Source: Octopus sinensis (taxonomy: Eukaryota). Taken from it: DNA of 20,869 bases. The DNA is taken from the NCBI RefSeq assembly GCF_006345805.1, contig NW_021824043.1, forward strand, positions 1-20,869. Reading direction: 5' to 3'. The translations under genes and the position numbers were made by a program. Positions 6,000 to 16,030 of the stretch are shown one piece after another; position 1 is the stretch's first letter; every line of letters begins with the position of its first letter. The notes beneath the pieces were generated by a model. It was not told the DNA's origin. It searched no databases and was given only the letters and a program-made list of their open reading frames with translations.

Positions 6000-6218
6000 C
6001 TCTTTACTCTTTACTCTTTTACTTGTTTCAGTCATTTGACTGCGGCCATGCTGGAGCACCGCCTTTAATCAAGCAACTCGACCCCGGGACTTATTCTTTT
6101 TGTAAGCCCAGTACTTATTCTATCGGTCACTTTTGCCGAACCGCTAAGTACCGGGGACATAAAACACCAGCATCGGTTGTCAAGCAATGCTAGGGGACAA
6201 ACACAGACACACAAACAC

Positions 6219-6273
<55 letters not shown>

Positions 6274-6820
6274 ATATATATATATATTATATATGTGTGT
6301 GAAATAGAAGATGAATAATCTTGTAGTAGATTAATCAAAAGTTTACCGATACTTAGTAGCAAAAATCACAGCAGTAAACAGCACGGTTGGAGGTACAACC
6401 ATATAGTGTTGCAACCGTGCGTTGGTGCGGATAATTGAAATTAAAACATTATGGTGAATTGAAGAAATGGAGCTGAACGCAGATTGAACAGAAATCGTTT
6501 TATTTCATTCTACACGTGTTTCGAAAGACACAAAATTACCAAAATCCGATTGAATAATGGGACCATATTGTGTCTTTCTCTCAGGAAGAAAAAAAGGAAA
6601 TCCGTTGGAAAAACAAAAACAGAACAGAGGCGGAGCAAAAAAAATCGAACTATGCTCCTAAGAGCCCAACGGATTCCTTTTTCTTATGAAGAGAAAAGAC
6701 ACAATATGGTCCCATTATTCAATCGGATTTGTGGTAATTGTGCCTTTCGAAACACGTGTAGAATGAAATAAACGATTTCTGTTCAATCTGCGTTCAGTCC
6801 ATTTCTTCAATTCACCAATA

Positions 6821-6877
<57 letters not shown>

Positions 6878-7038
6878 CGACCAGGCTTCTTTCAGTTTCC
6901 GTCTACCAAATCCACTCACAAGGCATTGGTCGGTCCGGGCTATAGTAGAAGACACTTGCCCAAGAAGCCACGCAGTGGGACTGAACCCGGAACCATGTGG
7001 TTGATTAACAAGCTACTTACCACACAGCACTCCTGCGC
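6000..7038 (-). mobile_element. Full-length SINE family A split by insertions in its central microsatellite
   Basis: Head 6877-7038 (minus: GCGCAGGAGTGCTGTGTGGTAAG..., B box GGTTCAGTCCC at 6977-6987). 3' part 6000-6218 ends in a (GAGTAAA)n-like tail. Same two-part arrangement as 3895-4243. Confidence 0.85.
6452..6817. mobile_element. Young foldback element (arms 6452-6608 and 6666-6817), each arm carrying a hammerhead-like motif and a poly(A)-signal-like A-run (family G)
   Basis: Near-perfect ~155 bp inverted repeat with a 57-nt spacer. Right arm (+): ATGAAGA-GAAAAGACACAA...TTGTGCCTTTC-GAAA-CACGTG-TA^GAATGAAATAAA. Left arm (-): CTGA-GA-GAAAGACACAA...TTGTGTCTTTC-GAAA-CACGTG-TA^GAATG. Confidence 0.85.
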
Positions 7039-15753: not shown

Positions 15754-15801
<48 letters not shown>

Positions 15802-15802
15802 C

Positions 15803-15960
15803 GCGCGCGCATGTAAGCACACAGATGAAAAACAACATGGAGAAAATTGTACTCGGGTACCAAATCTAGAGTTATATATTATTTTATTAGAATTCAAGAA
15901 TGACCTAAAACCTGTTCCTGAGAGTTTCAAGTAACCGCTCATCAGACGCTTGTGGCAATA
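15803..15960 (-). mobile_element. Repeat family D copy with decayed hammerhead motif (15911-15949)
   Basis: Minus: GCGT-CTGATGA-GCGGTTACTT-GAAA-CTCTCAG-GA-ACAGG. The body is homologous to 933-1050 and lies between two (TA)n tracts. Confidence 0.65.
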
Positions 15961-15967
15961 ATGATAT

Positions 15968-16030
<63 letters not shown>

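Follow-up and report, generated by a model that had tools for sequence, protein, structure and literature searches.

A hairpin-forming insertion in the Octopus sinensis genome and the inverted ends of a Hydra-like Penelope-like element family

The arms of a foldback in the Octopus sinensis genome are almost certainly the 3' end (pLTR) of a Penelope-like retroelement (PLE), and the foldback as a whole is probably a 5'-truncated insertion of a 3.63-kb element of this type into a (TA)n microsatellite, made by twin priming on one RNA. It lies in the 20,869-nt stretch of DNA analyzed here, referred to in the following as the window, which is a whole 20.9-kb contig (NW_021824043.1) of the 2.72-Gb genome. 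The window is rich in microsatellites, and no gene-like ORF was found in it.

A reading made from the letters of the window, referred to as the sequence-only reading, had placed a near-perfect foldback at 6452–6817, and this foldback is real. When the arms, 6452–6608 and 6666–6817, were aligned, 147 of 160 columns were identical, and the differences were mainly small indels, as that reading had also said (11 gap columns versus 2 substitutions). Folding of the 391-nt region gave an energy of -230 kcal/mol, compared to -74.5 kcal/mol for shuffled sequences (z = -27.7), and none of 100 shuffles was equally stable. The predicted structure has 144 pairs between the arms, with a longest perfect helix of 36 bp, corresponding to a duplex of about 150 bp. 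The proposed interval describes the foldback arms correctly, but falls short of the full element: because the left arm runs on into a 150-nt family tail that had been missed, the insertion reaches 6298 and occupies 6298–6822 (Table 1). A target-site duplication cannot be read at this locus because (TA)n is present on both flanks. The insertion lies between two further dispersed repeats, at approximately 6005–6225 and 6875–7037 of the window, which recur in other fetched loci and which we take to be SINE-like.

Table 1. Features of the foldback insertion and of a second, smaller foldback in the window.
Feature	Position	Strand	Details
Main tailed copy, 5'-truncated PLE 3' end	6298–6668	-	Family positions -222 to +150 (0 = pLTR end); 94% to natural copy L031
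Tail of about 150 nt, start of next tandem unit (5' UTR)	6298–6444	-	Contig loose ends at 6308 enter (TA)n
Inverted tail-less copy, stopping at pLTR end	6666–6822	+	Family positions -162 to -3
Single-copy foldback loop	6609–6665	-	Ordinary family sequence, in the longer arm only; spacer matches family copies
Inversion junction	6666–6668	.	3-nt overlap CCA common to both arms, read from sequence
(TA)n target, left side	6224–6294	.	Microsatellite
(TA)n target, right side	6821–6874	.	Microsatellite
Right-arm type I hammerhead remnant	6676–6772	+	Core 6686–6692 with C3->A; stem II 6693–6748
Right-arm hammerhead, 3' pieces	GAAA 6749–6752; palindrome ACACGTGT 6752–6759	+	Predicted cut after 6760
Right-arm triplet and stem I	GUA 6758–6760; GAA 6761–6763; AATAAA 6767–6772	+	
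Left-arm type I hammerhead remnant	6498–6595	-	Core 6585–6579 without one A of A6/N7
Left-arm hammerhead, 3' pieces	GAAA 6522–6519; palindrome 6519–6512	-	Predicted cut after 6511
Foldback of the L041 family	Longer copy 1042–913; short inverted copy 1045–1089	- (longer copy); + (short copy)	

The locus was compared with contigs assembled from 4 of 24 public sequencing runs, which are sequences without strand information. The family sequence was borne out by these contigs, as were the two end points of the insertion; the loose ends of the contigs continue differently from the window past 6668. The inversion junction of the window was absent from the contigs of the four runs, and no contig spanned 6675–6710. 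This absence would fit an assembly artefact, in which a long read had been mirrored, as would the small size of the contig and the predominance of indels among the differences between family copies (97 versus 28 substitutions, with 84 of the indels in homopolymers). However, the sequences flanking the foldback do not mirror each other (the best local match covers 68 columns of approximately 324 nt), which argues against a read-level artefact, each end stops at a family-specific site of its own, and the same design is found at 40 of 57 loci of the family. The sequence-only reading had itself raised the possibility of an artefact; in light of these results, it is highly improbable. A>G differences were considered as a sign of RNA editing and rejected, since they were the same in the contigs of DNA runs and of runs guessed to be RNA, and thus are family variants.

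A genome search with the right arm yielded 463 candidates, of which 40 were scored and 30 were fetched. Upstream of the arm, the family copies enter a long ORF, and the arm is continuous with an RT-encoding unit of 3633 nt that is repeated in tandem (L031, L033 and L035); partial tandems form the pLTRs, and 5' truncation is heavy. This continuity, together with the inverted pairs described below, upholds the PLE origin with inverted partial ends that the sequence-only reading had proposed. One natural copy (L144) has an unbroken 895-aa ORF, with an RT domain followed by a C-terminal GIY-YIG endonuclease, both assigned via homologues. The L144 protein has 92 homologues with 28–42% identity in the best local alignments; it is 35% identical over 474 aa to one of them, P0039, whose GIY-YIG region was matched at E 3e-11. 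A Pfam search of the family ORF returned no RT or GIY-YIG match and nothing else of relevance, and a PDB profile search with the family alignment returned no solved structure, and the domain calls therefore rest on homologues and motifs. These motifs include SDKT, which contains the DKT motif, and a C-terminal CNLC..E..N..CPH that aligns with relatives; at the position matching RWK, the protein reads RIRWL. The copies are young and near-identical, with a median of 0 substitutions per copy.

The family shares many features with the Hydra clade of endonuclease-bearing (EN+) PLEs, which are described in PMC8557442 as having DKT and RWK motifs, a CxCX5C linker, (TA)n insertion and a length below 3 kb. 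Like them, it has a single ORF encoding RT and then GIY-YIG, a DKT motif, a C terminus of the form CxxC..E..N..CxH, insertion into (TA)n and, close to the 3' end, a type I hammerhead whose stem III is palindromic. It differs in its length of 3.63 kb (3633 nt, above the 3 kb given for the clade), in having RWL for RWK, and in the linker. None of the 4 long natural ORFs contains the CxCX5C zinc finger, nor does any of the three frames of L035, whereas all 48 relatives longer than 650 aa have it. In L144, the site between RT and endonuclease is taken up by a Ser/Asn-rich stretch of 157 aa, recalling the Asn-rich insertions found at the same place in the rotifer Penelope (PMC3846280). Because the linker is absent, the family appears from its sequence to be Hydra-like, and we do not place it as a member of the Hydra clade. 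The linker finger has been held to direct elements to (TA)n; its loss while (TA)n targeting is kept argues against the finger being required. Hydra-1_Obim, as listed in PMC8557442, has protein and hammerhead sequences different from those of the present family, which may nonetheless already be catalogued.

Inverted pairs were surveyed at 57 loci, 30 of them found with the arm and 27 more found with the tail (3 of 30 in the tail search repeated earlier loci); these are best-scoring matches and not a random sample, and at 5 of the 27 loci the fetched DNA ends within the copy. Inverted pairs were present at 22 of 30 arm-found and 18 of 27 tail-found loci (40/57 in all). The inverted foldback is the usual insertion form of the family. 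The 3' ends of the copies fell into two groups, with 28 at -10 to +14 and 29 at +142 to +151, where the reference stopped, and none between. In pairs with both ends visible, one arm was tailed and the other tail-less in 20 of 21 arm-found and 17 of 17 tail-found cases (37/38), the presence of one tail per pair being given by design in the latter set; the exception, L006, is a pair without a tail on either arm. At the 57 loci, all 42 pLTR ends adjoined (TA)n, as did 45 of the 46 tail ends (87/88). Arm length varied between less than 100 nt and 3 kb, and no two loci had the same junction. An overlap at the junction was clear in 4 of 22 junctions when scored by script, many being unmeasurable because of indels; that of L018 is a palindromic 6 nt. 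At L006 and L018, whole inverted insertions are tandemly duplicated with their flanks, approximately 950 and 810 nt apart, respectively, and one inverted pair of long copies (L109/L110) was seen.

A foldback that is short, palindromic and TA-flanked could be taken for a MITE with terminal inverted repeats that was moved by a DNA transposase. This explanation is ruled out by the variable arm length and the different junction at every locus, which leave neither fixed termini nor a uniform length. Furthermore, a MITE would not account for an extension of 150 nt at one end only, or for arms formed by the 3' end of a unit that encodes an RT. The sequence-only reading had predicted that the foldback would be miscalled in this way, and had allowed that the family might turn out to have the fixed ends of a DNA transposon and no conserved core. 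Instead, the ends are asymmetric, the center is variable, and the hammerhead core is conserved in 45 of 47 copies. Short PLE foldbacks could be mislabelled as MITEs, or as miRNA precursors.

The two arms of a pair were then compared at sites that are polymorphic in the family, using a flank-anchored haplotype test; an earlier version based on BLAST columns, which gave 22/150, was replaced because homopolymer sites were misaligned. In the arm-found set, 2 of 84 comparisons differed, versus 47% in shuffles, none of 5000 shuffles being as low, and in the tail-found set, none of 31 comparisons differed, versus 39% expected. There was no informative site in 6 of 20 and 6 of 18 pairs, respectively, including the window pair. 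The 5' breakpoints of the two arms lay within 15 nt of each other in 6 of 21 arm-found pairs (1.25 expected) and 6 of 18 tail-found pairs (1.84 expected). Within 75 nt, the match was seen in 14 of 21 arm-found pairs (4.1 expected) and was not significant in the tail-found set (11 of 18, 8.2 expected, P 0.09). The common haplotypes and matched breakpoints suggest that both arms of a pair are likely to come from one template. Other possible origins of the shared haplotypes are gene conversion, polishing of the assembly, or two RNAs coming from a single source locus.

The mechanism that we favor is as follows. The GIY-YIG domain would cut both strands of the (TA)n target, and both cut strands would prime reverse transcription on one RNA, one target end at +151 (the tail end) and the other at 0 (the pLTR end). 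The two cDNAs would stop near each other and get joined, giving an inverted repeat of variable length. When one RNA is copied from both the pLTR end and the tail end, the insertion would tend to become a hairpin. The PLE protein of Anolis Poseidon has been shown in vitro to cut both strands and to extend them, with two start sites, one at each end of the tail (PMC11167929). We infer that twin priming from two such start sites would fit the tails, the haplotypes and the breakpoints alike.

An alternative is self-priming, which was proposed for the rotifer Penelope (PMC3846280): one cDNA or antisense template would fold back and copy itself, and an endonuclease would trim one tail, a resolution of the tail that has also been proposed (PMC8557442). 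Self-priming would also explain the haplotype sharing and the matched breakpoints, and the palindromic junction of L018 is in its favor. However, it predicts that the tailed arm, being made first, should reach further, and the tailed arm was the shorter one in 7 of 21 arm-found and 12 of 18 tail-found pairs (19/39). It cannot give L004 and L032, where the tailed arm consists of a tail fragment only and has no sequence in common with the other arm, and in 37 of 38 pairs the endonuclease would need to have taken off one tail and left the other. For these reasons, we consider self-priming rather unlikely as the origin of the pairs, and prefer twin priming.

Twin priming itself is known from L1, for which Ostertag and Kazazian in 2001 reportedly described both target strands priming on one RNA to give an inversion, with segments that are said not to overlap and a second start site that is said to vary. 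The present family differs from L1 in that both start sites are fixed and the same 3' end is usually copied into both arms, yielding a hairpin. In our literature searches, which covered an incomplete collection, we found no paper arguing for twin priming in PLEs.

The sequence-only reading had described the foldback as two outward-facing hammerheads. The layout and the family motif bear this out, since the motif lies inside the pLTR end, with the predicted cut 66 nt before it, and each arm therefore carries a copy; as assembled, neither of the window arms passes a hammerhead descriptor. The same descriptor was passed by an intact copy (L027) and by 3 of 20,000 shuffles. We compared the motif in 47 copies, out of 51 from which 4 were dropped because they were truncated or rearranged in the motif; the 47 are not all independent, since some are tandem duplicates. 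The two copies in which the core CUGANGA is not intact are the window arms, which have a different lesion each, as had been noticed: the left lacks one A of A6/N7 and the right has C3->A. The base missing at 6580 is present in the family contigs from the public runs, as is a G at 6528. The lesions may be sequence error, considering that the differences between copies are mostly homopolymer indels. The GAAA, palindrome, GUA and GAA pieces were found in the right arm where the sequence-only reading had put them, and as a block they are intact in 44 of 47 copies. In contrast, AAUAAA does not directly follow the cleavage site, as had been claimed, but starts 6 nt past the predicted cut and borders an extended stem I.

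Stem II was correctly recognized as long, although the perfect version with a loop of about 35 nt is not that of the family. Folding of the family stem II gave 11 pairs with one A-C mismatch and a 30-nt loop. The perfect strand, UUGUGUCUUUC, occurs only in the left arm of the window, 1 of 47 copies, whereas the strand with the mismatch, UUGUGCCUUUC, occurs in 44 of 47. The Rfam model Hammerhead_1 (RF00163) aligned to the core of an intact copy at 14.9 bits (E 0.71), below its 34-bit cut-off, with 50 nt of the copy falling in the stem II gap of the alignment. A search with the window arm returned no hammerhead match, and one with the whole window returned sub-threshold hairpin and microsatellite matches only, the best of them at the foldback being a miRNA model. 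For stem covariation, the copies are too alike to vary.

Stem III was not predicted to form in a monomer (pairing probability, 0.015). With the structure fixed, the calculated energy was -7.5 kcal/mol per monomer and -30.1 kcal/mol for a dimer paired through the palindrome. The intact family hammerhead is thus predicted to work as a dimer via its 8-nt stem III palindrome. Of 30 near-full-length copies, 6 of them censored, none had its start at a distance of 10 nt or less from the predicted cut, in line with uncut RNA as the main template, as described for Poseidon (PMC11167929). In 11 of these 30 near-full-length copies (L099–L128), the start falls in the interval from -2 to +142 relative to the upstream pLTR end, a zone that may mark the transcription start.

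In its general design, the motif resembles the minimal dimer-type PLE hammerheads of PMC4209133, sharing the type I core in the pLTR, the palindromic stem III, the G10.1-C11.1 pair and an enlarged helix II. It differs from them in that helix II has 11 pairs instead of 6–8, its loop is large, and A9 is not followed by an unpaired base. The Hydra-clade hammerheads have a stem II of 3–7 bp and a loop of 3–10 nt in the 26 rows listed in PMC8557442, compared to 11 pairs and 30 nt here. A comparable design is that of the plant element PLE-X1_sMoe, with a stem II of 9 bp and a 35-nt loop (PMC8557442 supplement).

A wider proposal, which we advance tentatively and with some doubt, is that PLE inverted ends are made by a dimer of the protein that cuts the two strands of (TA)n and copies one RNA twice, here in a family without the linker zinc finger, and that the accompanying long-stem-II hammerhead is dimer-dependent and missed by standard models.

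We then considered whether the foldback at the window locus could be kept for a function, either as a source of dsRNA serving as a substrate for ADAR or Dicer, or as a regulated ribozyme pair. The predicted duplex of about 150 bp would suit the first of these, and siRNAs were found to match inverted Penelope regions in transgenic Drosophila (PMC3681739), so that a dsRNA role through ADAR or Dicer, as judged from the structure, is plausible. The ribozyme pair is unlikely: a transcript of either strand would have a single hammerhead in sense orientation, which the long hairpin is predicted to bury (pairing probability for stem II, approximately 1e-38). Nevertheless, the window foldback is one of many young, near-identical insertions, both of its hammerhead cores are damaged and predicted to be masked, and the window has no gene-like ORF, all of which makes maintenance for a function very unlikely. 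With both cores damaged in the assembled sequence and, by prediction, hidden in the hairpin, the window foldback is likely a dead by-product of insertion, with dsRNA as its only possible activity.

Several of these structures have been published for other PLEs. An inverted truncated copy and a one-sided tail are described in PMC8557442 and PMC3846280, the former listing Penelope-13_HM as having an inverted copy that is 5'-truncated, and one hammerhead on either strand. Pairs of hammerheads on opposite strands, 100–700 bp apart in metazoan PLEs, are reported in PMC4209133, and siRNAs from inverted Penelope in the Drosophila study cited above. Adineta Penelope (PMC3846280) and Anolis Poseidon (PMC11167929) are the most similar in insertion structure, with head-to-head inverted pLTRs of which one is tailed, palindromes at some junctions, and two RT start sites. 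The family differs from both in its tail of about 150 nt, compared to the published 30–40 bp, and in its arm statistics, which favor twin priming over self-priming. The window locus itself is an ordinary product of a known retroelement class; what is new is modest, namely the arm statistics and a Hydra-like family that lacks the linker zinc finger and has both a tail of 150 nt and a hammerhead with a long stem II. According to PMC8557442, it is an unsolved problem how PLEs form tandem and inverted ends and how they come to find microsatellites. The arm statistics tie the start sites observed in vitro (PMC11167929) to the inverted structure in the genome, making the mechanism directly testable. 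PLE foldbacks would also add many potential dsRNA hairpins to the genome.

Other PLE copies and hammerhead-like motifs were observed in the window and elsewhere in the genome. At 913–1094, the window contains a second, smaller PLE foldback that adjoins (TA)n and belongs to a different Hydra-like family, that of L041, whose hammerhead is short-stemmed (Table 1). An older copy of the 3' end of the same family, 71% similar, is present at 15761–15975. A third Hydra-like family (L051, L054, L056, L060, L061 and L068) has an intact CxCX5C linker and a hammerhead-like motif approximately 200 nt after the ORF, with the core CCGAAGA (U4 to C); when read by eye, stem I and the palindromic stem III can still pair. 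A separate repeat of about 290 nt (L068 830–1124; L129–L143; 1709 candidates), to which no ORF could be tied in the fetched stretches, has a hammerhead-like motif whose stem II region spans 51 nt and whose stem III contains a further 8-nt palindrome; this repeat also forms inverted pairs. Three further hammerhead-like matches, in L043, L049 and L068, have 45–69 nt between the core halves, and in two of them stem III is palindromic. A long stem II may thus be a common design in this genome.
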